Positions 11,202 to 61,159 of a stretch of 64,000 nt of DNA are shown here, one piece after another. A program made the position numbers and the translations under genes. Position 1 is the first letter of the stretch; each line of letters starts with the position of its first letter. Location: the NCBI GenBank assembly GCA_003222035.1, contig QHUS01000045.1, positions 89,360 through 153,359 of the forward strand, in the 5' to 3' direction. Origin of the DNA: Gemmatimonadota bacterium. Its GTDB lineage: Bacteria; Gemmatimonadota; Gemmatimonadetes; Gemmatimonadales; GWC2-71-9. Below the pieces are notes generated by a model. That model made no database searches. It was not told where the DNA came from and worked only from the letters and a program-made list of their open reading frames with translations.

Positions 11202-11522
11202 GTGTCCCTGCGCGAAGCCCAACAGACCGTGGATCGGTGGATCGGTCAATATAAGGAAGGATACTTCCCGCCGCTGACGAACCTCGCGCGGCTCACCGAG
11301 GAAGTCGGCGAGCTGGCGCGGGAGCTGAACCACCAGTTCGGCGAGAAACGCAAGCGACCGGAGGAGGCCGAAGGCTCCATCGCAATGGAGCTCGCCGACA
11401 TTCTGTTCGTCATCATCTGCCTCGCCAACTCACAGGGAATCGACCTGGACGACGCATTCGCCCAGATGATGCGAAAGGTCACCTCCCGCGACGCCGATCG
11501 CTGGACCAAGAAGGCACGCTGA
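11202..11522 (+). CDS. MazG-type nucleotide pyrophosphohydrolase (small, single domain)
   Basis: Only the last ~106 codons of track ORF 10428-11522 look real. GTG at 11202 is preceded by GGAG at 11193. Sequence LTEEVGELARE...ELADILFVIICLAN matches the MazG EExxE/ExxD helix pattern. Confidence 0.7.
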   Translation: MSLREAQQTVDRWIGQYKEGYFPPLTNLARLTEEVGELARELNHQFGEKRKRPEEAEGSIAMELADILFVIICLANSQGIDLDDAFAQMMRKVTSRDADRWTKKAR

Positions 11523-12411
11523 TCTCCTCGTAGATGCGCTGGTAGGACGTGAGCCGGTCGCGCTCGAACGCGCCTTGCCCCGCCGCCTCTCGGACGGCAC
11601 AACCCGGCTCCGCGAGGTGCCGGCAGTTGTCGAAGCGGCATTGATCGAGGAAAGGACGGAACTCGGGGAAACACGCGGCCAGCAGCTCGGGATCGATCCC
11701 CCAGGTCCCTATCTCCCGGAGCCCGGGCGTATCGACGACGTATCCCCCCGCCACGGCCACGACGAGCGCAGCGCGGGTGGTGTGTTTTCCCGTGTCCCAT
11801 TTTCGGCTGATGTCCCCGATGCGGAGGTCGAGACCGGGCTGCAGCGCATTGAGCAGGCTCGACTTCCCCACCCCCGACTGGCCGGCAAGCACCGACTCAC
11901 GGCCGCGCAGCAGGTCGCGGAGCGCGGCCAATCCTTCGAGCTGCGGCACGGAGGTGGCGAGCACCTGGTAGCCTGCGGGACCGTAGCGTCGCTGCGCCTG
12001 ATCGTAGACCACGCGCTCAGGGTCGAGATCGACCTTGTTGAGCACGATGACGGCCGGGATGCGGTTCGCCGCTGCGATCACCAGGAAACGATCGAGCATC
12101 GGGGGACTCGGTTCCGGGCTCCGGGCCGCGGCCACGATCACGATTTGATCGACGTTGGCGGCTATCGGCTGGGCGCGCGGGCTCCGCTCGCCGGCGGCGC
12201 GCCGCACCAGGACGCTGCGGCGCGGGCGGACGCCGGAAATCGTGGCGTGCCCGCCGGCGTGGCGCTCCAGCTCGACCACGTCTCCCGCCACGATGCGGTC
12301 GTCGTCCCGGTGCTTGAGCTTCCCGCGCAGCACTGCGGTCACCTCGCCCGCCTGCGTGTGAATCCGGTAGGTGGACCCCGTGCGCGTGAGGACAACGCCA
12401 GTCGTGATCAC
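11479..12411 (-). CDS. rsgA: ribosome small-subunit-dependent GTPase A
   Basis: Track ORF trimmed to the GTG at 12411 (VITTGVVLTRTGSTYRI). Circularly permuted GTPase motifs NKVDL...GQSGVGKSSL...DTPG, and a C-terminal zinc knuckle CRFDNCRHLAEPGCAV. Confidence 0.85.
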   Translation of the reverse strand: MITTGVVLTRTGSTYRIHTQAGEVTAVLRGKLKHRDDDRIVAGDVVELERHAGGHATISGVRPRRSVLVRRAAGERSPRAQPIAANVDQIVIVAAARSPEPSPPMLDRFLVIAAANRIPAVIVLNKVDLDPERVVYDQAQRRYGPAGYQVLATSVPQLEGLAALRDLLRGRESVLAGQSGVGKSSLLNALQPGLDLRIGDISRKWDTGKHTTRAALVVAVAGGYVVDTPGLREIGTWGIDPELLAACFPEFRPFLDQCRFDNCRHLAEPGCAVREAAGQGAFERDRLTSYQRIYEEISVPSWSSDRRRGR

Positions 12412-12719
12412 GCCCTTCCCTGCCTCTCGATGCACTCGTCGAGATGCCGTTTCACGTCCTGCAGGGTCAGCGCCAGGAGCGGGGCCAGCGCCTCGGCCGG
12501 GGTCGCGCCCCGAGACAGGTAATCGGTCTCGAGGTGACCGACGGCACGGTCGCCCGCGTCGGACCAGCGGACGAACAGCAGCGCGGCCCCAAAGCGACCC
12601 TGCGCATCCGGCGCATCGTCCACATACGTCCCCACGGAATACGACTGGCCGTCGGTCCCGGAGAACGCGGGGGCGCGCTCGTGCACTCGCTGATACCCGC
12701 CCAAGGTGCCGTCCGTCAC
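12408..12719 (-). CDS. hypothetical protein, translationally coupled between proline dehydrogenase and rsgA
   Basis: The GTG at 12719 overlaps the proline dehydrogenase stop as GTGA. Its own stop overlaps the rsgA GTG start by 4 nt. Non-shadow composition (VGTYVDDAPDAQGRFGAALLFVRWSD...DVKRHLDECIERQ). No domain recognised. Confidence 0.5.
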   Translation of the reverse strand: MTDGTLGGYQRVHERAPAFSGTDGQSYSVGTYVDDAPDAQGRFGAALLFVRWSDAGDRAVGHLETDYLSRGATPAEALAPLLALTLQDVKRHLDECIERQGRA

Positions 12720-13648
12720 GTCCGCCGTACAGACTCCCGCAGCACGTTGCCGACCAGGAACGCAAGGTTCGCCGGGCGCTCGGCGAGCCGGCGCATCAGG
12801 TAGGGATACCATTGCGTGCCGAACGGAACGTAGACACGAACGTTGTATCCCTTGCGCCGCAGCCTCACCTGCAGATCGCGACGCACACCGTACAACATCT
12901 GGAACTCGAAGCGGTGGGGCTGGATCCCCTTGTCGCGCGCGAATGCCAGGGCGTGGTCGATGATGCGCACGTCGTGCGTCGCGATGCCCGGGTAGTGCCC
13001 CTTGAGCATGAGGCGCTCCATGCAGCGGACGTAGTTCGCGTCCACATCGCGCTTGTCCGGGAAGGCAACGGTGTCAGGCTCCTGGTAGGCACCCTTGCAC
13101 AGCCGGACTCGCGCGTCGAGCGCGATCATCTGTTCCACGTCCTGTTCGGTGCGCCGCAGATACGACTGGAGGACCACTCCCACGGCGTTGCCGCACTCGG
13201 GGTGGAGGGTCCGCTTGAAGAGCTGCAAGGTTCGCTCGGTGTAGTCGGATTGCTCCATGTCGATCCGCACGAACGAGGCATGGGCCTTCGCCCGCACGAT
13301 GATGGCGCGCATGTTTTCCACGCACAGCGCCTCGTCGACATCGAGGCCCATCTGGGTGAGTTTCACGGACAGGTTGGACTCGGCACCAGCCGTCTTGATG
13401 CGGTCGAGGGTCTCGAGGTAGGTGTCCCGCGCCCTCAACGCCTCGGCCGCGCTGTGCACCGACTCCCCCAACAGGTCGAGGCTCGCGACGAGTCCGGCCG
13501 CGTTGAGTTCCTTCACCGCGGCAACCCCTGAATCCACCGTCTCCCCCGCGACGAAGCGGGCCGCGAAACGGCGCGCCAGGCCGTTGCGCCGGATGAATCG
13601 AAAGATTCGGGGTTGCTCGCTGAGCCACAGGAGGCTGGTGCGGAACAT
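12716..13648 (-). CDS. proline dehydrogenase
   Basis: 310-aa ORF with ATG at 13648. Family-typical N-terminus (RFAARFVAGETVDSGVAAVKELNAAGLVASLDLLGE) and C-terminus (QMLYGVRRDL...GYNVRVYVPFG..WYPYLMRRLAERPAN). Confidence 0.85.
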   Translation of the reverse strand: MFRTSLLWLSEQPRIFRFIRRNGLARRFAARFVAGETVDSGVAAVKELNAAGLVASLDLLGESVHSAAEALRARDTYLETLDRIKTAGAESNLSVKLTQMGLDVDEALCVENMRAIIVRAKAHASFVRIDMEQSDYTERTLQLFKRTLHPECGNAVGVVLQSYLRRTEQDVEQMIALDARVRLCKGAYQEPDTVAFPDKRDVDANYVRCMERLMLKGHYPGIATHDVRIIDHALAFARDKGIQPHRFEFQMLYGVRRDLQVRLRRKGYNVRVYVPFGTQWYPYLMRRLAERPANLAFLVGNVLRESVRRT

Positions 13649-13717
13649 CAGGTGTCAGGTGTCAGGTGTCAGGTGTCAGGTGTTGGGTGTTGGGTGCTAG
13701 GTGCTAGGTGCTAGGGA
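13648..13717. repeat. tandem heptanucleotide array (NNNGGTG) x ~10
   Basis: Read directly: TCAGGTG x5, TTGGGTG x2, CTAGGTG x2, then a degenerate CTAGGGA. It fills the whole gap between the stop of the upstream FadB/J-type gene (13711-13713) and the ATG of proline dehydrogenase (13646-13648). Confidence 0.95.
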
Positions 13718-15849
13718 TAGAACTTCGCGTTGCGCTGGGCGTGGTCGCGCAACACGTCGCACGGTGCGAAACGGGGACCGTAGCGCTCGGCGAGACGTTC
13801 CAGCTCGCCGACGATGCGCGCTGCGCCGAGGTCGTCGGCATGGCGCAGCGGCCCGCCGCGAAACGGCGGAAATCCGAAGCCGAAGATGGCGCCGATGTCG
13901 CCGTCGCGTGGCGTCCGCACGATCCCCTCCCCCACCGCCCGCGCGGCTTCATTGAGCGTCACGAATAGGAGCCGCTGGATGATCTCCGCCGGCCGCGGTC
14001 CACCGTTCGGCTGGGACCCGATGAGCTCGTAGACGGCGGGGTCGACGCTCCCCTTCTTTCCGCCGGCGTACGTGTAGAACCCCTTTCCCGCCTTGCGCCC
14101 CAGCCGGCCGCTCTTGACCATGCCGGCGAACGCTGCCACCGGGGCAAACCGCTCGCCGAATGCGTCGTGCATGACGCCGACCACCTTTTCTCCCACGTCC
14201 AGCCCCACCTCGTCAAGCAGCGTAATCGGCCCCACCGGGAAGCCAAACTCCACCATCAGGCGGTCGATCTCTTCGATTGCCACGCCCTCGACCAGGAGGT
14301 GCCCGGCCTCGTTCATGTACGGCGTGAGGATCCGATTGATCCAGAATCCCGGGCTGTCCTTCACGACGATCGCGGTCTTGCCCATCCGGCGACCGAATGC
14401 GACGGCCGTGGTGACGGCCGGCGGTGCCGTGCGCGCCGACGGAATGACCTCGAGCAGGGGCATGCGGGCCACGGGCGAGAAGAAGTGCATCCCGATGACC
14501 AGCTCAGGCCGCTTGGCGCCCTCCGCGATCAAATGAATGGGAATGGTGGACGTATTCGACGCGAACACCGTGTCGGGGCGCGCCGCGGTCTCGATCTCCC
14601 GCAGCACCTGTCGCTTGACGTCCAGCTCCTCGAACACGGCCTCGATGACGAGCTCGGCGCGGCCGAACCCGGTGTAACTCGCGTCGCCTGAGAGCAGAGC
14701 GATCAGCCGGGTGTGTTCGTACTTGGTGATGTGTCGCCGCCTGAGCCGATCGTCGAGGATCTCGCGCGCAGCAGCGAGCCCCTTCGCGACCCGCGGCAAG
14801 TCGGCGTCCTTCATGCGTACGTCCACGCCAGCCTGCGCGATGGCGGTGCCGGCGATCCCCGACCCCATGAACCCGGCGCCCACGACGCCGAGGCGCTTCA
14901 CGACCGCGGGCGGCGGGGGGTTGGGGATGCCGAAGTCCTTCTTGAGGGCGGTCGTAGCGAAGAAGATCTGGACCAGCTTGCGCGAGACGTCGGTAACGGC
15001 CAGTTGCCCGAACAGCTGGGCCTCGCGCTTCAGTCCCTCGGTCATGCCGTGCTCGAGTCCGTGCGCCACGGCCTCGAGCGCGGCGAGCGGCGCCGGGTAG
15101 TTGCCGCGCGTGCGGGCGAGGACCTGCTTCCGGGCCGCGCGGTACACGAGGCGCCGGCCCAGGGGATTGCCGTCGAGGAGCGCGCCGACGAGGCTACCGG
15201 GGCGCCGCCGGCGGGGCCGCCAACCGCCCGCCAGGCGCTGCGCCGCCGCCACCGTCACGTCCTGGAGTATCGCGGGGTGAACGAGCTCGTCGACGATGCC
15301 GACACGAAACGCCTTCGCAGCGCGCTCCACCTTGCCCGCCAGAATCATGTCGAGCGCCGCGCGGGCGCCGATCAGCCGGGGCAGTCGCTGGCAACCGCCG
15401 GCGCCGGGGAGAATGCCGAGTTGAACTTCCGGGAGCCCGATCTGCGTTTTGGGGTGGTCCGACGCGACGCGGTACCCGCACGCGAGGGCGAACTCGAGGC
15501 CGCCGCCCAGGCACGCGCCGTGGATTCCGACCGCGATCGGCTTGGAGAAGCGCGCCACGCGGTCGAGCATCTCCTGGCCCTCCGCCGAGAGCCGCTCGGC
15601 CTCCGCGGCCGTAGTGAGCTTGACGAATTCCTCGATGTCGGCGCCGGCGATGAAGCTGTCCGGCTTGCCCGAAAAAAACGCCACGGCCTTCACGGAGGCA
15701 TCGTGTCCGAGCGCCTCGAACGTCGCGAGCATGTCCTGCTTGACCACCTGCGAGAGCTTGTTGACGGGCTCGCCCTTCAAGTCGAACGTGACGACTGCGA
15801 CGCCATCGACGAGCTCCCAGGTCAACGCGGAGCCGGCGGAGGAGACCAT
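13711..15849 (-). CDS. bifunctional enoyl-CoA hydratase / 3-hydroxyacyl-CoA dehydrogenase (FadB/FadJ type)
   Basis: Track ORF 13711-16125 trimmed to the ATG at 15849 (MVSSAGSALTWELVDGVAVVTF), which overlaps the thiolase stop as ATGA. N-terminal crotonase fold; NAD-binding GVVGAGFMGSGIA. Confidence 0.9.
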   Translation of the reverse strand: MVSSAGSALTWELVDGVAVVTFDLKGEPVNKLSQVVKQDMLATFEALGHDASVKAVAFFSGKPDSFIAGADIEEFVKLTTAAEAERLSAEGQEMLDRVARFSKPIAVGIHGACLGGGLEFALACGYRVASDHPKTQIGLPEVQLGILPGAGGCQRLPRLIGARAALDMILAGKVERAAKAFRVGIVDELVHPAILQDVTVAAAQRLAGGWRPRRRRPGSLVGALLDGNPLGRRLVYRAARKQVLARTRGNYPAPLAALEAVAHGLEHGMTEGLKREAQLFGQLAVTDVSRKLVQIFFATTALKKDFGIPNPPPPAVVKRLGVVGAGFMGSGIAGTAIAQAGVDVRMKDADLPRVAKGLAAAREILDDRLRRRHITKYEHTRLIALLSGDASYTGFGRAELVIEAVFEELDVKRQVLREIETAARPDTVFASNTSTIPIHLIAEGAKRPELVIGMHFFSPVARMPLLEVIPSARTAPPAVTTAVAFGRRMGKTAIVVKDSPGFWINRILTPYMNEAGHLLVEGVAIEEIDRLMVEFGFPVGPITLLDEVGLDVGEKVVGVMHDAFGERFAPVAAFAGMVKSGRLGRKAGKGFYTYAGGKKGSVDPAVYELIGSQPNGGPRPAEIIQRLLFVTLNEAARAVGEGIVRTPRDGDIGAIFGFGFPPFRGGPLRHADDLGAARIVGELERLAERYGPRFAPCDVLRDHAQRNAKFYP

Positions 15850-17108
15850 CAACGGCGCTCCAGCACCAGCGCGAACCCCATCCCCCCCTGCGCACAAATG
15901 GACAGCAGGCCGAATGGCACGTCCCGGCGCGCCATCTCGTTGGCGAGCGTGGTGACCAGGCGCGCACCCGTTGCGCCGAACGGATGGCCGATGGCGATCG
16001 AGCCGCCCATCACGTTGATGATGTCCTCGTTGATGTCCCAGCCCAACGCCCGCCATCCCTGCAGGTTCGAGAGCACCTGGGCCGCGAAGGCCTCGTGCAC
16101 TTCGACGACGCCGAGATCCTTCCACTGGATCCTCGCGCGCTCGAGCGCCTTGGGAACGGCGAAGATCGGCGCCTGGAGCAGCTGCCAGCCGGGATCGACC
16201 GCCGCCACCGCGTAGGACCGCACGTAGGCGAGTGGCGTGTAGCCGAGCGAACGCGCTGCCGTCTCGCTCATGAGCAGTACCGCCGACGCTCCGTCGGTGA
16301 GGGGAGACGAATTCGCGGCCGTGACGCTCCCGTAGCGCCGGTCGAACACCGGTTTGAGCTTCGCCATTTGCTCGAGCGAGGTATCTCGCCGGATGCCGTT
16401 GTCCTGCGTCACGATGCCGTCGCCGGTTCGCTGCGGTAGCCAGGGGGCGATCTCGGCGACGATGCGGCCATCGTCCGTCCCCCCCGCTGCGAGCTGATGG
16501 CTGCGCAGTGCCCAGCGGTCCTGGGCGGCGCGCGTAACGTGATTCTCCTTGGCCATCTTCTCGGCGGACTGGCCCATCGACTCGCCGGTCGATGGCTCGG
16601 CGATGGCGGGCGAGACGGGGATCAAGTCGCGTGGCCGGATGCGGCTGAACGTCCGGAGCCGGGCGGCGAGGGAGCGGGCCTTGCTCGCCTCGACGAGGAT
16701 GTCGGCCAAGCGGCGCGACGCCAGGATCGGAATGTCGGAGAGCGACTCCACGCCCCCCGCGAGCACGACATTCGCTCCGCCGAGGGCGATCTCATCGTGC
16801 GCGTTGGCGACGGCCTGGCCGGAGGAGGCACAGGCCCGGTTCAACGAGTACGCCGGGATCTCTTTGGGGAACTGCGGGAGGAGGCTCACTTCGCGGGCCA
16901 CGTTCGGCACCAGCGCCGACGGAACGACCTGTCCGAAGATGACCGCGTTCACCTCGGCGCCGTCGAGATTGGTGCGCTCCAGCAGCTCACGGGCCACGAA
17001 CCTGGCCAGGTCCACGGCCCGTACGTCCTTCAACGTCGTCCCCGATTTGCAGAACGGCGTCCGGCACCCGGCGATCACTGCGACACGCCGTCCGTTCCCA
17101 CCTGGCAT
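15849..17108 (-). CDS. acetyl-CoA C-acyltransferase (thiolase, FadA/FadI type)
   Basis: Track ORF trimmed to the ATG at 17108 (MPGGNGRRVAVIAGCRTPF). Active-site region NRACASSGQAV and C-terminal GGSIAIGHPFGATGARL, CAQGGMG. Confidence 0.9.
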   Translation of the reverse strand: MPGGNGRRVAVIAGCRTPFCKSGTTLKDVRAVDLARFVARELLERTNLDGAEVNAVIFGQVVPSALVPNVAREVSLLPQFPKEIPAYSLNRACASSGQAVANAHDEIALGGANVVLAGGVESLSDIPILASRRLADILVEASKARSLAARLRTFSRIRPRDLIPVSPAIAEPSTGESMGQSAEKMAKENHVTRAAQDRWALRSHQLAAGGTDDGRIVAEIAPWLPQRTGDGIVTQDNGIRRDTSLEQMAKLKPVFDRRYGSVTAANSSPLTDGASAVLLMSETAARSLGYTPLAYVRSYAVAAVDPGWQLLQAPIFAVPKALERARIQWKDLGVVEVHEAFAAQVLSNLQGWRALGWDINEDIINVMGGSIAIGHPFGATGARLVTTLANEMARRDVPFGLLSICAQGGMGFALVLERR

Positions 17109-23978: not shown

Positions 23979-24032
23979 CAGGCACAGGACGTACGCAGCG
24001 TACGCCCGGGTCGTGCCCGCGGCGGAAGGGGC

Positions 24033-24078
24033 GGGAGGGGGGGGCGGGGGGGGCCGGGGGGGCCGGGGGGGCCGCCGC
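24033..24078. repeat. G-run tract G3-A-G8-C-G8-CC-G7-CC-G7 (C-runs on the coding strand)
   Basis: Read directly: gggaggggggggcggggggggccgggggggccgggggggccgccgc. It begins immediately after the stop of the deoxyhypusine-synthase-like gene (24079-24081). Confidence 0.95.
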
Positions 24079-25218
24079 TCAGGTCCTGCGCCCGACAGTC
24101 GTCGCCTCCGCGCGCGCGTCGCGGTCTGCCTTCGCCTCCTGGTATGCCTCGGTGAGCTGCCGCATCATCTCGTCGCGCCGGTCGTACAACCGCCGCAGGC
24201 GCCGCTTTTTCCGCCGGGCGAGCGCGTACGCAGCGAGGATCGGAAAGCCGACGGTGTTGTCGAGATAGCACACCACCGTCCCCGGCAGCTGGTCGGGATC
24301 CACCTTCCCCCAGCTCACGGCCTCGGCGGGCGTGGCGCCCGACAGGCCACCGGTGTCGGGGCGCGCGTCGGTCATCTGGAGGTAGTAGTCATGCCCCTTC
24401 TCGCTGATGCCCAGGACTTCCTGGATCTGCGGCTCCGTCTGCAGGACGAAGTTCTTCGGGCTGCCGCCGCCGATGATCAGGACACCGCTCTTGCCGCCGT
24501 GGGTCTTCGCGTCGAATACGATGGCCGACGTCTCATTCACGTCGGCGCTGGGATCGAACCGGAGCCGCGATCCGGTGAGCGCCTGCTCGGCCACGTTCAT
24601 CCCGATGGAGGAGTCACCCGGGGAGGACGTGTAGATCGGCACCGCGCACCGGTGCGCCACGCCGAGCACGGATTTGCGGGAGATCCCGAGCGCCTTCTCC
24701 CGCTCCAGGATGTAGCCCCCGAGCCGGTAGTGGTACTCTGCCGTGCTCATGGCGCGCTGGAAGTCGGGGCCCGCCGACACCTCACGGATGTACGCATCCG
24801 TCGACAGCAGGACCTCGTAGTCGAAGAAGATGTCGTAGATACGGACCACGCCCTCTTCGCGCAGCTCGACGTCGTCGGCGAAGGGAGTCCCCCGGTGCAT
24901 GGTGAGACCCAATCCGAAGTGCGCGTCGTGGTACAGGTTCGCGCCCGTCGACACCATCCAATCGATGAATCCCGCCTCGAGGAGGGGGATGATCGTGGAC
25001 ATGCCCAGCCCTGCGGGCGTCATCGCGCCGGTGAGGCTCATCCCGACGGTGACATCGTCCTCGAGCATCCGCTCAGCGAAGAGGCGGCACCCCTCGGCGA
25101 GACGGCCTCCGTTGTACGCGAGGAACGCGTTGTCCACCAGCTCCGGGACCGTCTCGCGGCCGGTGATCGGCTTGGGGTCGATGGGCTGGCCACGCAAGAA
25201 GTCTTTGCGAGTCGTCAT
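24079..25218 (-). CDS. deoxyhypusine synthase-like protein (DHS/homospermidine-synthase-like family)
   Basis: Track ORF trimmed to the ATG at 25218 ([18 protein letters not shown]), which overlaps the LOG gene stop as ATGA. Family-like segments [45 protein letters not shown]. Confidence 0.8.
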
Positions 25219-25973
25219 GGCACCTCCGCGTCGCGTTGGGCCTCCACCCGGACGACCTGGGACCGGCGCTCGCGCGCCTGCCGCACGATCGTCACCGCCT
25301 CCCGCGGGCTGTCGGTCACCGTGAAGAGCTTGAGATCGGCGGCGGCGATCTTCCCCTCCCCCACCACGCGATCCCGCAGCCACTCCGCCAGGCCGCTCCA
25401 GTACTCCTCGCCGAACAGGATGACGGGAAAGTGCTTCACCTTCCCCGTCTGGATCAACGTGAGCGCTTCGAACAACTCGTCCATCGTTCCGTAACCGCCG
25501 GGAAACACGATGAACGCGGTCGAGTATTTGACGAACATCGTCTTACGGACGAAGAAGTAGCGGAAGTTGATCGCGCGCTCCACGTAGGGATTGAGTCCTT
25601 GCTCGAACGGCAGCTCGATGTTGCAGCCGATCGACAGGCCGTTCCCTTCCTGGGCGCCGCGATTCGCGGCCTCCATGATCCCGGGCCCGCCACCCGTGAT
25701 GATCGGGAAGCCCTCTTCGGCCAGCATGCGAGCGGTCTCGACGGCCTTCTCGTAGTAGGGATCGTCAGAGGTGGTGCGCGCCGACCCGAAGACCGTAACC
25801 GCGTTGTAGACGTCGGAGAGCGTGTCGAATCCCTCCACGAACTCTCCCATGATGCGCAGGACGCGCCACGAGTCGGACTTGACGAAGGCGCGCCGCTCGC
25901 GGGGAACCTGCGCGAGGAGGCGTTCGTCTTCAGTGACCGGGGGGTGTTCCGAGCCGCTCGAGCGCTGAGACAT
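25215..25973 (-). CDS. LOG family / TIGR00730-type Rossmann protein (often mis-annotated as lysine decarboxylase)
   Basis: ATG at 25973. Motifs [36 protein letters not shown]. Confidence 0.85.
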
Positions 25974-44873: not shown

Positions 44874-44936
44874 GCAGGCGGTAATCTGGCGGGGACGAGG
44901 GACGGGGGAAGAGGGAAGGGAAGCGGGTGCGGTGGG

Positions 44937-46590: not shown

Positions 46591-47914
46591 CAGGCCCGTC
46601 CCTCCCCCAGCCGCTCGCGCACGAGGCGATCCATCTGCGCGCGCACCTCAGGGTGCCGCATGCGACCGAGGATCTCCGCCCCGAACCCGTAGGTGAGGAT
46701 GCCGCGGGCGGTCTCGGGCGAGAGCCCGCGACTCCGCAGATAGTAGAGCTGCATCGGGTCGATGGGACCCACGGTCGAGCCGTGCGTGCATTTGACATCG
46801 TCCGCGTAGATCTCGAGCTGCGGCTGGCTGTCGGCACGCGCTTCGGTCGAGAGCAGCAGGTTGTTGTTGGTCTGCTTCGAGTCGGTGCGTTGCGCCCCAG
46901 GCCGTACGATGATGCGTCCGTTGAAAACGCCGTGCGCCCGCTCGCCAACCACGCCGTTGAAGAACTCGTGGCTGGCGCACCGTGGCTGGGCATGGTCGAT
47001 CACCGTGTGATGATCGGCGTGCTGAGCCCCGTTCAGCAGGTACAATCCATTGAGGATCAGCTCCGCGCCCGCACCATCCAGGACGGCGTTGATGTCGTGG
47101 CGGGCGAGCCCCGCCCCCAGCGTCAGGACGTGCACGCCGAGAAAGCTGTCGCGTTCCTGTCGCGATTGTGTCGTCGCTATCTGGAAGCTCTCGGGGCCCT
47201 GCCGCTGCACCCGATACAACTCCACGTGCGCGCCCTGCCCGACGACTACCTCGCTCACGGCATTGGTCCAGTATGGGCCCCCCTCAGCCACGCCGGCGAA
47301 CGTCTCGACGATGGCGGCCCGCGCGCCACGCTCGACCACGACGAGTGTGCGTGGGTGCGAGACGGTGCGCTCGCGACCGGTCGCGAGGTACAGGATCTCG
47401 AGTGGCTGCTCGAGGGTCGCATCGGCGGGGACATGCACGAACGCACCGTCCACGAGAAACGCCGTGTTGAGAGCCGCGAAGGGGCTCTCCTGCCAGCGCG
47501 CGTACCGGGTGAGGTGGCCCCGGGCCAGGGCGCTGTCCCCGTCTGTCCGGAGCGCTGCGGCGAGACTGCTCACCCGCACGCCTTTCGGCGTGCTCGAGGC
47601 CGTGGACAGCTCCGCGGCGTAGTGCCCGTCCACGATTACGACGCGCGGCCCGCCACCGATCAAGAACGGCTCGATGGCGCGGGGGCCGAGCTGCGGGATG
47701 GGGGATGCCGGATGCGTGAACCGTGTTTCCGCGATCGCCGCGACGCTCGTGAAGCGCCACTCTTCCTGTTTCGTCGTCGGGAAGCCGAGCTCGGCGAACC
47801 GGGCGATCGCGCTTTCGCGAATCTCTTTGAGCCACGCCGGCGCGACGGCGGCCCCGTTGTGCGCGAACGCCCGGAAGTCCGCCAGGTAGCGCTCTGTGCC
47901 GCTGGCGACATCGC

Positions 47915-48695: not shown

Positions 48696-50132
48696 TCAGC
48701 CGACACTGCCTTCGAGACTGATGCCGAGCAGCCGTTGGGCCTCGACCGCGAACTCCATTGGCAGCTCCTTGAAGACTTCCTTGCAGAACCCGTTGACAAT
48801 CATGGACACGGCATCCTCGGGCGACAGGCCGCGCTGCTTGGCGTAGAAGATCTGGTCTTCGCCGATCTTGGAGGTCGACGCCTCGTGCTCCATGATGGCC
48901 GTGCTGTTGCGCACGTCGATGTAGGGGAAGGTGTGGGCTCCACACTGGTCGCCGATCAACATCGAATCGCACTGCGAATAGTTGCGGGCCTGCTCGGCGC
49001 CCTTGAGGATCTTCACGAGCCCCCGGTAGGTGTTCTGGCCTCGACCCGCCGAGATGCCCTTCGACACGATCGTGGAGCGGGTGTTCTTCCCCATGTGGAT
49101 CATCTTGGTGCCCGTGTCGGCCTGCTGGCGGTGGTTCGTCACGGCCACCGAGTAGAACTCACCGATCGAGTCGTCGCCCTGCAGGATGCAGCCGGGGTAT
49201 TTCCACGTGATGGCCGATCCGGTCTCCACCTGGGTCCAGGAGATCTTGGAGCTGCGGCCGCGACAGGCGCCACGCTTGGTGACGAAGTTGTAGATCCCAC
49301 CCCGTCCCTCTTCGTCGCCCGGATACCAGTTCTGGATCGTCGAGTACTTGATGCTCGCGTGGTCGAGCGCGACGAGCTCTACCACAGCGGCGTGCAGCTG
49401 GTTCTGGTCGCGGACGGGAGCCGAGCAGCCCTCGAGGTAGCTGACGTAGCTCCCCGCGTCCGCGATGATCAGCGTGCGCTCGAACTGCCCGGTCGATTCC
49501 GCGTTGATTCGGAAGTAGGTGGACAGCTCGAGCGGGCAGCGCACGCCCTTCGGCACATACACGAACGACCCGTCCGTGAACACCGCGGAATTAAGCGCCG
49601 CGAAGAAATTGTCGTTGTAGGGGACTACGGACCCCAGGTACTGCTGGACCAGCTCGGGGTACTCCCGGATTGCCTCCGAGATGGCGCAGAAGATCACCCC
49701 GTGCTTCTTGAGCTCCTCACGGAACGTCGTCGCCACGGAGACCGAATCGAACACGGCGTCCACGGCCACCCCCGCGAGCCGCTTCCGCTCCTCGATCGGG
49801 ATCCCGAGCTTCTCGAACGTCTCGAGCAGCTTGGGATCGACCTGCTCCAGGCTGTCCAGCTTGGGGCGCTGCTTGGGAGCCGCGTAGTAGCTGATGGCCT
49901 GGTAGTCAATCGGGCCGTACTGCACGTTCGCCCAGTGCGGCTCCGGCATCTTCAGCCAGTTGCGATAGGCCTTGAGCCGCCAATCGAGCATCCAGGAAGG
50001 CTCGCCTTTCTTCTGGGAGATCAGCCGGATGACGTCCTCGCTCAGACCGGGCGGGACAGTCTCCGACTCGATATCCGTGACGAAGCCGTACTTGTACGGC
50101 TGGAGGACCTGGGCTTCGATACCGCTGCTCAT
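48696..50132 (-). CDS. sufB: Fe-S cluster assembly scaffold SufB
   Basis: Track ORF trimmed to the ATG at 50132 ([17 protein letters not shown]), with GGGAG upstream. Highly conserved SufB stretches [35 protein letters not shown]. Confidence 0.95.
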
Positions 50133-50193
50133 TGAGACTCCCGAAGTCCTTTGTGCATCGCAAGTTGCGAAGACGTGACCAGGGCGAAGGCGA

Positions 50194-50222
50194 ATCCTAC
50201 AGGAATTACTCGGGATTGTCAA
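50194..50222 (-). promoter_or_regulatory. candidate sigma-70-type promoter of the suf operon
   Basis: On the minus strand: TTGACA (50222-50217), a 17-nt spacer, then TAGGAT (50199-50194), about 60 nt upstream of the sufB ATG. Identified by sequence pattern only. Confidence 0.4.
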
Positions 50223-50230
50223 CCAAAAGG

Positions 50231-50317
50231 CAAGGTGCTAGGTGTCGGGTGCCAGGTGCCAGCTACGCCGCGTCCGCGTCCGACACCTGACACCTGGCAC
50301 CCAACACCTGCCTCAGT
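50231..50317. repeat. inverted heptanucleotide arrays (4 x NNNGGTG, 22-nt spacer, 4 x NNNCACC) forming a long hairpin; candidate terminator/insulator
   Basis: Left arm CAAGGTG CTAGGTG TCGGGTG CCAGGTG (50231-50258). Right arm CGACACC TGACACC TGGCACC CAACACC (50281-50308). A 12-bp perfect stem pairs 50247-50258 with 50291-50302, extendable to 50240-50309 with one mismatch. The element starts directly after the stop of the 50313-50924 gene and sits just upstream of the suf -35. Confidence 0.9.
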
Positions 50318-50924
50318 AGATGTCCCGATTCACCTCCCTCACTAAGCGCTCGTAGTCTGCGGGTGTGTTCAGATCGTCGATGACCGCCGGGTCGTCGACA
50401 GTCACCGTGACCAGGTCCTGCTCGTGGGCCAGGAGCACGGCCCGGGCGCCGTGCCGGGTCGCGGCCGGGCTAGTGGCGAGCTCGGCGAACAGGGCCTGAT
50501 CCCAGATCACGGGATGCCCGCGCCGCTCGGCGAAGCGCGGAACGACGGCAGGCGCTCCGCTCCGCCGGTAGGTCTCGAGCAGCAGCTCCACCGTGGCGAC
50601 GCGGACGTGTGGGAGATCGACGGGCCAGGCCACGAGCCCCGTGGGGCGGACCGGCTCCAGGGCTGCCAGCACGGCGCGGAGCGACGCGATCGCGCCACCG
50701 GCAACATCGGGGTTCTCCACGATGACGCAGTCGTGTGTGGCCAAGGCGGGTCGAATGCGAGGGGCGTCCGGACCGAGCACCACGACGCGGGACTTCAGGT
50801 CCAGCGCTTCCAGGGCCTCCAGGATGCGGACGGCGAACGGCCGTCCCCGGAAGTCCAGCAGCGCCTTGGGTCTACCCATCCGCTCCGAGGCCCCGGCCGC
50901 CAGAACCACCCCGGCGAGAGCCAT
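50313..50924 (-). CDS. MobA-like NTP transferase (MocA/molybdenum cofactor cytidylyltransferase-like)
   Basis: Track ORF 50313-51479 trimmed to the ATG at 50924. N-terminus MALAGVVLAAGASERMGRPKALL is the family signature. The upstream part of the track ORF is antisense to def. Confidence 0.75.
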   Translation of the reverse strand: MALAGVVLAAGASERMGRPKALLDFRGRPFAVRILEALEALDLKSRVVVLGPDAPRIRPALATHDCVIVENPDVAGGAIASLRAVLAALEPVRPTGLVAWPVDLPHVRVATVELLLETYRRSGAPAVVPRFAERRGHPVIWDQALFAELATSPAATRHGARAVLLAHEQDLVTVTVDDPAVIDDLNTPADYERLVREVNRDIY

Positions 50925-51549: not shown

Positions 51550-52966
<1,417 letters not shown>

Positions 52967-60212: not shown

Positions 60213-61159
60213 GGGACTGCAAACGTATGCCAGAACACGACTCGCTGCACGTTCCACGTTCCACGACGCATGAGGAGGCCGAATGCTTTCGCGCCGTACG
60301 TGGAATCGAGGGTGAGGCCGTGCTCGGACGCGAGACGACGTGCCGCCTCCCCGTCCGACGTCGGATGCCCGTAGCCTTCGCCCAGCCTGTCGACGATTTC
60401 GAGGGAGCAGGGAGCGGGGAGCGGGACCCCCCGGTGCGCGAGCAGCCGCCGTGCGGCGTGCGCCAGCCGCAGCGTCCGCCAGCGATTCGCGATCACTATC
60501 GGCGCGACGCGCACGCCCACGACGCGGGTGGGCCAGCCGAGCGCGCCCACCGCAAGCGCGAGGCCCGCGGCCGTGCCGCCGGTGCCGAGGGGGAGGACGA
60601 TCGCGTCGGGTGGGTGAGCGGTCTGCGCCGTGAGCTCGAGCCCTGCGAGCAGGTGGCCGACGACGGCGCGGGGATGCGCCCCGCCCCCGGGAATCCAGCG
60701 GCGGGGCCCAAGTGCGCGCGCCCGGCGCCACACCTCGAGCATCGCCACCGGCAGCGTGGCCCGCATCCGTGCGCGCACGACGAGCGCCGCCCGTTGCTCA
60801 CACGCGGTGGCCACCGCCTCACTCAGGGGCGTCACGGGCTGCGGGAACTGGGCGAGCGCGGCGCGCCCTCCAGCGGCGGCGGCGTGCACCGCTGTCGCCA
60901 GGCAGTGGGTCGAGCCCGTCCCTCCCACGGTGACGAACACGGTGCCCGGCGACGCGCCTGCGAGCAGGAACTCGAGCCCGCGCACCTTATTGCCACCGTA
61001 CCGCTGGGACGCTCGGTCCTCGCGCTTGAGCGCCAGCTCGGCCAGGCCGAGGGCGCGCGCCAGGGCGGGCGCTGGCTCCAGGGGCGTCGGCCATTCGCCC
61101 AGGCGACACGGCGCGAGAGTCGCGCGTATCTTTTGGATCAGCTGCGCCGCATCCGACAC
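60209..61159 (-). CDS. PLP-dependent enzyme of the D-cysteine desulfhydrase / ACC deaminase family
   Basis: Motifs WPTPLE, KREDRASQRYGGNKVRGLEFLL, and GGTGSTHC. Start uncertain: the GTG at 61159 is preferred because the ATG at 61213 would overlap the divergent small ORF. Confidence 0.65.
   Translation of the reverse strand: MSDAAQLIQKIRATLAPCRLGEWPTPLEPAPALARALGLAELALKREDRASQRYGGNKVRGLEFLLAGASPGTVFVTVGGTGSTHCLATAVHAAAAGGRAALAQFPQPVTPLSEAVATACEQRAALVVRARMRATLPVAMLEVWRRARALGPRRWIPGGGAHPRAVVGHLLAGLELTAQTAHPPDAIVLPLGTGGTAAGLALAVGALGWPTRVVGVRVAPIVIANRWRTLRLAHAARRLLAHRGVPLPAPCSLEIVDRLGEGYGHPTSDGEAARRLASEHGLTLDSTYGAKAFGLLMRRGTWNVQRVVFWHTFAVP

Follow-up and report, generated by a model that had tools for sequence, protein, structure and literature searches.

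The window analysed here (64,000 nucleotides (nt) from an uncultured member of the Gemmatimonadales; GenBank assembly GCA_003222035.1, contig QHUS01000045.1, positions 89,360 to 153,359) contains a gap between two genes of one operon that consists of nothing but tandem heptanucleotides. The genes encode a FadJ/FadB-type bifunctional enzyme (FadJ-like) and a proline dehydrogenase (Pro_dh), and the question raised by the locus is where such an array came from and what it may do to the genes that it separates. The four features at issue are as follows.

13648..13710, minus strand: heptanucleotide array (CACCTAG)2(CACCCAA)2(CACCTGA)5, recognized by sequence, Tandem Repeats Finder (TRF), shuffles, alleles and folding.
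13711..13717, minus strand: seed unit TCCCTAG, the last proline codon and stop codon of the FadJ-like gene, homologous to the TCCCTGA(TG) overlap of relatives (sequence, relatives' junctions).
13711..15849, minus strand: FadJ/FadB-type enoyl-CoA hydratase/3-hydroxyacyl-CoA dehydrogenase, 712 amino acids (aa) as called on identical contigs (Pfam ECH_1, 3HCDH_N, 3HCDH).
12716..13648, minus strand: proline dehydrogenase, 310 aa, with an ATG start and without a Shine-Dalgarno (SD) sequence (Pfam PF01619, E=7.5e-46).

Read on the plus strand, positions 13648-13717 comprise five copies of TCAGGTG (13648-13682), two of TTGGGTG (13683-13696), two of CTAGGTG (13697-13710) and a final CTAGGGA (13711-13717); CTA at 13711-13713 is the TAG of the minus-strand FadJ-like gene, and the minus-strand Pro_dh open reading frame (ORF) has its ATG at 13646-13648 (CAT on the plus strand). 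The minus-strand transcript of 13648-13710 is exactly nine heptads, UAG-(CACCUAG)2(CACCCAA)2(CACCUGA)5, which fill all 62 intergenic bases from the FadJ-like UAG to the Pro_dh AUG, the final A of the array being the A of AUG. The first-pass annotation, made from the window alone, had described an array that fills the gap and shares this A, as the sequence and TRF confirm; it had counted about ten heptads including a degenerate copy, of which nine are true units and the tenth (TCCCTAG) is the FadJ proline codon plus stop, that is, the seed. TRF reported a period of 7 with 5.1 perfect copies and a score of 72, as well as longer imperfect arrays (scores 72-77 in all). The pattern GGTG-N3-GGTG-N3-GGTG has 11 matches in the window against 0.02 expected from shuffles (none of 100 shuffles reached 11), all of them at 13.65 kb (site 1) or at a second site at 50.2 kb (site 2, 50.23-50.31 kb), and allowing one mismatch revealed no further site in the window. 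The array is a heptanucleotide simple sequence repeat (SSR), a short unit repeated head to tail beyond the length expected by chance.

Whether the array changes was addressed with 10 soil-metagenome contigs (L001-L010) that encode an identical Pro_dh protein and that make, with the window, a set of 11 sequences. These are at least 99.6% identical over 10.9 kb of flanks, with 1-40 substitutions, and the gap between the FadJ-like gene and Pro_dh is 41, 48, 55, 62 or 69 nt long, corresponding to 6, 7, 8, 9 or 10 CACC units. All length differences are multiples of 7, and the array is the only indel in the 10.9 kb. There are at least seven allele structures, for example (TAG)2(CAA)2(TGA)6, (CAA)1(TGA)7 and one with CGA units; the number of UAG units including the FadJ stop ranges from 1 to 3, the types and order of units vary among strains with identical proteins, and the FadJ-like and Pro_dh ORFs are intact in every allele. 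The variability in copy number that the first-pass annotation had proposed is therefore real, and length polymorphism in whole units is, on the evidence of these alleles, the signature of slipped-strand mispairing. An assembly artefact was considered and rejected: the arrays are only 41-69 nt long, independent samples yielded the same alleles and the flanks are collinear, and because the alleles vary in whole units with no other indel, a one-off assembly error is ruled out. Arrays with non-identical neighbouring units are unchanged across independent assemblies (L251 equals L252, L253 equals L254, L256 equals L257 and L258, and site 2 is the same in four contigs).

The origin of the array can be traced in the orthologous fadJ/Pro_dh junctions of relatives, which were compared by reading their sequences and are listed below with the identity of each Pro_dh protein to that of the window.

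L267/268, L270-275 and L276 (82%, 80% and 77% aa identity, respectively): ...TTC-TAT-(T/C)CC-TGATG, in which the stop overlaps the start and there is no gap.
L256-258 (79% aa identity): UAG-CCCCUGA-CCCCUAG-CCCCUG-AUG.
L253, L255 and L269 (82-86% aa identity): C-rich spacers, 20-27 nt long, that have decayed but still show traces of the heptad register.
L266 (86% aa identity): UAG-UCCCUGG-CCCCUAG-CCCUAG-UACCUG-AUG.
L251/252 (94% aa identity, 96.6% nt identity): UAG-CACCUCG-CACCCGA-CACCUGG-CACCUG-AUG, with four CACC units.
Window population (100% identity): 6-10 CACC units.

The overlap TATCCCTGATG is present in L267/268, L270-275 and L276, which are three more distant Gemmatimonadales lineages. 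Because the junctions of the relatives range from no gap through 3-4 related or decayed units, the array is an expansion of the overlap itself: the comparison shows that an ancestral ...TAT-CCC-TGATG stop/start overlap expanded in place by slippage. The repeat unit is a copy of the ancestral UCCCUGA, which holds the FadJ stop, and the tract therefore begins at the stop codon and ends in ...CCUG-AUG. In a neighbour-joining tree of the Pro_dh genes (midpoint-rooted, no support values) the overlap-type L276 is basal and L256 groups with the overlap-type L270, which suggests that the junction may have expanded more than once, with at least two independent origins. The locus thus provides a repeat with a clear origin, a tandem copy of an overlapping stop/start junction, and a natural allelic series, with gaps of 0, 20, 27 and 41-69 nt in near-identical or related operons, that could be used to measure the effect of a spacer on coupling or polarity.

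The favoured explanation, with a probability of roughly 55%, is that the array is a hypermutable heptanucleotide SSR, born by slippage from the stop/start overlap, that now acts as a spacer loosening translational coupling. Replication slippage on the overlapping ...TAT-CCC-TGA-TG... junction that links the FadJ-like and Pro_dh cistrons in Gemmatimonadales duplicated 7-mers, each bringing with it a copy of the stop codon; since the first copy still terminates FadJ and the last copy still gives Pro_dh its ...CCUG-AUG context, the tract can grow or shrink without altering either protein. Runs of identical units (CACCTGA) keep slipping and so produce the gaps of 41-69 nt in present strains. The resulting spacer, untranslated, G-poor, unstructured and with stops in all frames, would replace direct termination-reinitiation coupling, and the SD-less Pro_dh AUG would be reached either by post-termination scanning or by fresh binding of 30S subunits to the single-stranded tract as a standby site. 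The number of units would set, in a graded manner, how tightly the translation of Pro_dh and of the next two cistrons (a 103-aa ORF and RsgA, described below) tracks that of FadA/FadJ. This graded effect would probably be mostly a tolerated by-product of heptamer slippage and not a selected switch.

Several points weigh against this explanation. The CACC core is found also at the unrelated 50.2 kb site and in other Gemmatimonadales arrays, which local slippage alone does not explain; a shared core might reflect sequence preference on the part of a factor or of a copying process. Several diverged relatives retain a spacer of about 27 nt, which may point to constraint and not to neutrality. In model constructs with 0-14 units, the predicted accessibility of positions -20 to -1 shows no monotonic trend with unit number. 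Finally, the tree that orders the junction states has no support values, the folds are single-sequence thermodynamic models, and the functional steps proposed for this uncultured organism are inferred.

Strains with at least 99.6% identity differ widely in their alleles of an array placed directly before a start codon, which might also point to a selected contingency locus or rheostat, where repeat number is kept as heritable and reversible variation and differing levels of Pro_dh (and RsgA) are favoured in fluctuating soil. A precedent is the (ATCTTTC)n tract of Haemophilus influenzae hmw1A and hmw2A, as described in PMC12721329: like the array, it is a transcribed 7-nt SSR upstream of a start codon with a copy number that varies in natural populations, and it sets the level of expression, that of hmw1A being inversely proportional to repeat number. 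The hmw1A tract differs in lying in the promoter-proximal 5' untranslated region of an adhesin gene of a host-adapted pathogen, whereas site 1 is intercistronic, and in acting by way of RNase III and of a long hairpin formed with a G-rich partner, whereas site 1 has no predicted partner. Selection for variation is judged unlikely here, while ranking first among the alternatives. The array lies neither in a reading frame nor between -35 and -10 elements and so has no on/off geometry; the genes downstream encode a proline dehydrogenase (a core catabolic enzyme within an operon), a small ORF and RsgA, with no surface, restriction or host-interaction gene among them; close relatives cope with 0-27 nt at the junction; and neutral slippage predicts length diversity anyway. 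Rehm et al. thought phase variation unlikely for comparable arrays by metabolic genes (PMC4692102). The putative expression modulator of the first-pass annotation would in several ways be unlike classical contingency loci, situated as it is within an operon, with no promoter-like site and before a metabolic gene.

The composition of the transcript raises another alternative. The 62 nt contain 29 C, 19 A, 7 U and 7 G; a G count this low (7 or fewer) is shared by only 0.018% of the 62-nt segments of the window, both strands considered. UAG and UGA recur at period 7, so that there are stops in all three frames, and the tract contains no AUG, GUG or UUG. A C-rich, G-poor tract with stops in all frames and no SD sequence was what the first-pass annotation had reported, and each of these properties holds. 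The absence of an SD sequence (no AGGA, GGAG or GAGG in the 30 nt upstream of the Pro_dh ATG) is unremarkable, because about half of the 22 called genes inspected also lack one, several of them with pyrimidine-rich leaders, and an SD-less Pro_dh is normal for the organism. Such a tract, C-rich, predicted to be single-stranded and kept free of ribosomes by its stops, might be a Rho utilization (rut) site, on which Rho would load over 41-69 nt after the FadJ stop and cause partial termination, with more units giving more polarity. A typical rut site is about 60-80 nt long, which places the tract at the short end. The relatives, with 0-27 nt, have too little sequence for Rho loading to be a conserved role of the junction, and strong polarity would be costly with the essential ribosome-biogenesis gene rsgA downstream in an overlapping run. 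Composition and predicted structure are compatible with a Rho site, which is considered improbable.

Folding predictions bear on the favoured spacer and on a possible binding site. In the centroid structure of a 241-nt segment, a single-sequence thermodynamic prediction, the whole array is unpaired, and the mean predicted pairing probability is 0.38 in the array versus 0.63-0.72 in the flanks. In the model constructs with 0-14 units, the region from AUG to +15 is mostly paired regardless of unit number (unpaired probability 0.14), a prediction that is consistent with a standby-site role of the tract. Three candidates were rejected at site 1: a promoter inside the array (no sigma-70-like site at 13300-14100), a known RNA family (no Rfam match even at E<=1), and pairing of the array with a nearby G-rich partner as in hmw (the array being unpaired in the centroid fold).

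A periodic binding platform, the protein- or RNA-binding array envisaged by the first-pass annotation, would have its 7-nt register read by a multimeric RNA-binding protein, an S1/Csp-type protein or a small RNA with GGUG repeats, and the factor would control translation of Pro_dh or antitermination. HutP, which reads UAG-N4-UAG-N4-UAG, is an example of a multimeric reader, and the window allele holds this very pattern if the FadJ stop is counted; the combination of a conserved CACC core and a changeable 3-nt tail, present at both sites and in further Gemmatimonadales arrays, resembles a constrained motif, the array and the GGUG arm of site 2 have complementary sequences, and MacGregor proposed the binding of S1, Csp or CsrA to TAACTGA arrays (PMC4679880). 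On the other hand, a HutP-type UAG-N4 triplet site was rejected on the variation of the UAG count from 1 to 3 among strains with identical proteins, and the unit types, which vary among strains as well, likewise argue against a fixed multi-site register; the order of units also differs among strains with identical proteins. Relatives carry CCCC cores or decayed sequence at the same place, no Rfam family matches site 1 and no candidate binder was identified. The binding claim found no evidence in its favour, and a binding platform is regarded as the least probable of the explanations weighed here.

The second site was described by the first-pass annotation as a recurrence of the heptads. The recurrence is real, with the correction that site 2 is an inverted pair of 4+4 units and not a single direct array. 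Its surroundings are as follows.

50313..50924, minus strand: MobA-like nucleotidyltransferase, 203 aa as called, upstream of site 2 (gene calls, Pfam).
50282..50310, minus strand: 5' arm of site 2 (sense), four GGUG-type heptads, 3 nt after the MobA-like UGA (sequence, pattern, fold).
50233..50262, minus strand: 3' arm of site 2, CACCTGG CACCCGA CACCTAG CACCTTG, pairing with the 5' arm (sequence, fold).
50221..50228, minus strand: U-rich tail UUUUGGUU directly after the hairpin, terminator-like by eye (sequence).
50194..50222, minus strand: sigma-70-like promoter TTGACA-N17-TAGGAT upstream of sufB (promoter scan; conserved in L277).
48696..50132, minus strand: SufB, 478 aa, with a GGAG Shine-Dalgarno sequence, downstream of site 2 (Pfam; exact protein on 7 contigs).

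The order of elements on the minus strand is UGA-GGC, four GGUG heptads, a loop of about 20 nt, four CACC heptads, CC-UUUUGGUU and TTGACA-N17-TAGGAT. The sense RNA is predicted to fold into one long hairpin of -74.7 kcal/mol (z=-7.5), and the plus-strand (antisense) RNA to only -59.9, the weaker antisense fold resulting from several positions of site 2 that form G.U pairs. A scan for consensus terminators made no call at site 2, of which the stem is far longer than those of typical terminators, and Rfam matched it only with animal microRNA hairpin models far below threshold, as a generic hairpin would be matched. Site 2 is identical in four assemblies. In L277, with a SufB that is 93% identical, the hairpin is absent and about 48 nt of unrelated sequence stand in its place, with the same promoter kept; there (L277 752-1504), TTGACA-N17-TAGGAT drives the gene of a 221-aa regulator of ArsR/HTH_20 type that overlaps the start of sufB. 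The regulator gene is missing in the lineage of the window, where the promoter faces sufB directly (50133-50222). Judging from the predicted fold and from inspection of the sequence by eye, site 2 is most likely a lineage-specific terminator or insulator hairpin built from heptads. Three of the seven contigs with an identical SufB (L261, L262 and L265) end just past the hairpin, at GTTGACA or 52 nt before the ATG, possibly because assembly breaks at the hairpin or because the region varies in ways that the contigs do not show.

The same core at two loci 36 kb apart, the absence of site 2 from a relative with a 93% identical SufB and about 48 nt of unrelated sequence in its place, the units CACCCGA and CACCTGG common to site 2 and the site 1 allele of L251, and similar pairs in other Gemmatimonadales genomes could together mean that a dispersed or mobile repeat spreads through the genome and has left copies of itself at 13.65 kb (the array) and 50.2 kb (the inverted pair). 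Against this, the site 1 junctions form a graded series that begins with the ancestral overlap, and their units go back to the local TCCCTGA. Inspection by eye revealed neither terminal inverted repeats nor target duplications, and different loci of related genomes carry different unit sequences, which copies of a single element would not. The comparison with elements of the miniature inverted-repeat transposable element (MITE) or repetitive extragenic palindrome (REP) type found two loci in the 64 kb window and unit sequences that differ between loci in related genomes. Insertion of a mobile element is considered very improbable, with only a binding platform ranked below it. The description of the array as a dispersed element, made in the first-pass annotation, accordingly stands insofar as GGTG/CACC heptads recur at 50.2 kb and in other Gemmatimonadales genomes, and fails insofar as the 13.65 kb array grew in place. 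All four alternatives to a slippage-born spacer are weakened by two observations: the junction of relatives has 0-27 nt or other cores, and strains with identical proteins differ in the type and order of their units.

The distribution of similar arrays was surveyed by scans of public genomes and of public metagenomes for runs of five CACC cores spaced as heptads, with at least 120 matches in each (loci L011-L250). Among the matches listed, (CACCN3)n arrays occur in many phyla, most being simple perfect repeats of unrelated units, and several Gemmatimonadales and other high-GC contigs resemble the window in architecture. One of them, L071, has CACCTGC, CACCCAA and CACCTGA units in an array that adjoins an ATG, with an inverted GGTG array upstream, and L069, L090, L148, L157 and L138 carry inverted heptad pairs. 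Of the 243 arrays listed, 62 have a GGTG-type partner upstream of the CACC units and 7 have one downstream; for arrays of at least 4 units among the matches listed, the figures are 41 and 2. This asymmetry does not result from the choice of strand, because both arrangements are their own reverse complement. The arms are complementary within a locus and the unit sequences differ between loci (GCGGTGA/CACCGCT in L069, GACGGTG/CACCGTC in L090). The orientation of arrays relative to downstream ORF starts, by a crude ORF-based test, was 18% versus 11% with a random baseline of 17% (p=0.07, not significant); an earlier, looser version of the test had been inflated by GTG codons inside GGTG.

CACCTGA is seemingly the commonest unit among the CACC-Y-R-N arrays listed, which is an impression and not a frequency. 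The contigs listed with it span 40% to 71% G+C and include Streptomyces, Acidobacteriota, Desulfobacteraceae, Bacteroidota and Gemmatimonadaceae; the arrays often begin at TGA.

A wider proposal, which is doubtful, is that CACC/GGTG heptad arrays form a cis-acting RNA module across bacterial phyla, comprising standby tracts and hairpin terminators or insulators recognized by a common factor. If so, C-rich sense arrays would be SD-independent landing or standby tracts for ribosomes, with lengths tuned by slippage; polar inverted pairs, with the G-rich arm before the C-rich one, would be hairpin terminators or insulators that separate a stop codon from the promoter or start that follows; and the heptad register and core would result from recognition by one shared factor, for instance the ribosome, S1 or a nuclease (RNase III or the like).

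Heptanucleotide repeats have been described in other bacteria, and a literature search for heptamer repeats in Gemmatimonadetes found nothing specific. The STRR units of cyanobacteria, CCCCAGT, TTGGTCA and CAACAGT, differ from those of the array. Like the array, the STRR heptamers of Calothrix PCC 7601, as cited in PMC4692102, are tandem heptanucleotides in non-coding DNA and often clustered; they belong to another phylum. The heptads TTTTGAT of Vibrio cholerae ctxAB are also strain-variable 7-bp units upstream of a gene, and according to bioRxiv 10.1101/2021.05.14.444153 they are promoter DNA sites that recruit transcription regulators, whereas the array has no promoter-like site and lies inside an operon.

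The closest counterparts are three. Heptamers are the most over-represented long SSRs in many large high-GC genomes, an excess ascribed to slippage of the polymerase (Mrazek, Guo and Shah 2007, as cited in PMC4692102 and PMC4679880). As represented in those citations, the long SSRs of that survey resemble the array in being tandem 7-nt units in intergenic positions of large high-GC genomes of non-pathogens, with length changes in whole units, and nothing essential differs, although the Gemmatimonadales, this unit and a traced origin of an array do not figure there.

The heptamers GGGAATC and GGGGA(C/T)T of Xanthomonas and Nostoc occur genome-wide in 2-26 units and differ in length between close relatives (Rehm et al. 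2015, PMC4692102). Their G-rich strand is the non-coding one within 50 bp upstream of ORFs, so that the mRNA is C-rich, and in some cases the array extends over a stop codon; each genome has 70-75 convergent inverted pairs with the potential to form stem-loops, and the arrays adjoin metabolic genes (PMC4692102). Site 1, in which the G-rich strand is non-coding just upstream of an ORF, and site 2, a convergent inverted pair, follow the same pattern. The unit sequence and the phylum are different, and the Xanthomonas and Nostoc units have tracts of G3-4 that form G-quadruplexes in vitro, whereas each unit of the array has only GG-T-G, falls short of the four or more tracts of at least three G that a G-quadruplex takes, and is not expected to form one.

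The TAACTGA repeats of marine Beggiatoaceae, some Cyanobacteria and Bacteroidetes are G-poor with stops in three frames, mostly forward, and end one to a few nt before SD-less starts; 13 sets overlap an upstream stop, and a translational role was proposed, not shown (MacGregor 2015, PMC4679880). The array, forward, adjoining an SD-less start and with stops in all frames, behaves in the same way and belongs to a different family: its units are CACCTGA, CACCTAG and CACCCAA, with variable tails, whereas TAACTGA is one fixed unit in 2-6 copies at 169 sites in a genome, reported without population-level length data or an origin series. The function of heptanucleotide repeats is stated as unknown in both PMC4692102 and PMC4679880. 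Thus the arrays described here behave like the repeats of Mrazek, Rehm and MacGregor and join no named family, having no G3 tracts and a unit other than TAACTGA; the array is best filed in the heptanucleotide SSR class, here in Gemmatimonadales, and is not a new kind of element. The heptamer repeat class, polar inverted pairs included, is thereby extended to this order.

The remaining cistrons of the site 1 operon are the following.

15849..17108, minus strand: thiolase, with a stop that overlaps the FadJ start; first cistron of the same-strand cluster (Pfam Thiolase_N/C, gene calls).
12408..12719, minus strand: 103-aa ORF, a downstream cistron with overlapping ends (gene calls).
11479..12411, minus strand: RsgA GTPase, a downstream cistron with overlapping ends (Pfam RsgA_GTPase, gene calls).

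The contigs with an identical Pro_dh carry the same-strand run of thiolase, FadJ, Pro_dh, 103-aa ORF and RsgA. The other junctions inspected (thiolase/FadJ, Pro_dh/103-aa ORF and 103-aa ORF/RsgA) all overlap, and the heptad tract is the only gap. The 103-aa ORF (12408-12719), which matched no Pfam family, and RsgA would share any polarity effect of the array. The start codon of Pro_dh is well supported, the best 120 homologues being almost all 310 aa long; the mechanical ORF of the FadJ-like gene reaches 16125, beyond the called start at 15849. The Pro_dh and SufB homologues with 79-90% identity carry the NCBI label Gemmatimonadales, and the window has about 68% G+C. In L270-L275, at about 1334-1375, a G-rich sense-strand repeat (CGGCGGGGGAGGCGGGGGGCGCGGGGGGCG...) follows the Pro_dh stop; its length is different in L275, where the next gene starts 9 nt later.

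Other repeats were noticed in the window. Tandem G-rich 9-mers (GGGGGGGCC-like, TRF score 62-67) occupy 24021-24074 and are C-rich on the minus strand, beginning only a few bases past the stop codon of a deoxyhypusine-synthase-like gene on the minus strand (24079-25383) and lying upstream of a minus-strand transporter of the major facilitator superfamily; at this position L256 has a 46-nt gap without the array. The 9-mer array is a second lineage-specific tandem repeat, C-rich on the sense strand, in an intercistronic gap. A loose scan also found short imperfect G-rich stretches of period 7 (GGGACGA-like, GGGAGC-like) at 44890-44917, 47687-47714 and 60400-60427, probably in coding sequence. 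The only Rfam match above threshold across the whole window is a thiamine pyrophosphate (TPP) riboswitch (RF00059, 64.3 bits, above the gathering score) at 51550-51650 on the plus strand, directly upstream of the ThiC gene at 51641-52966 (Pfam ThiC_Rad_SAM, E=9.7e-194).

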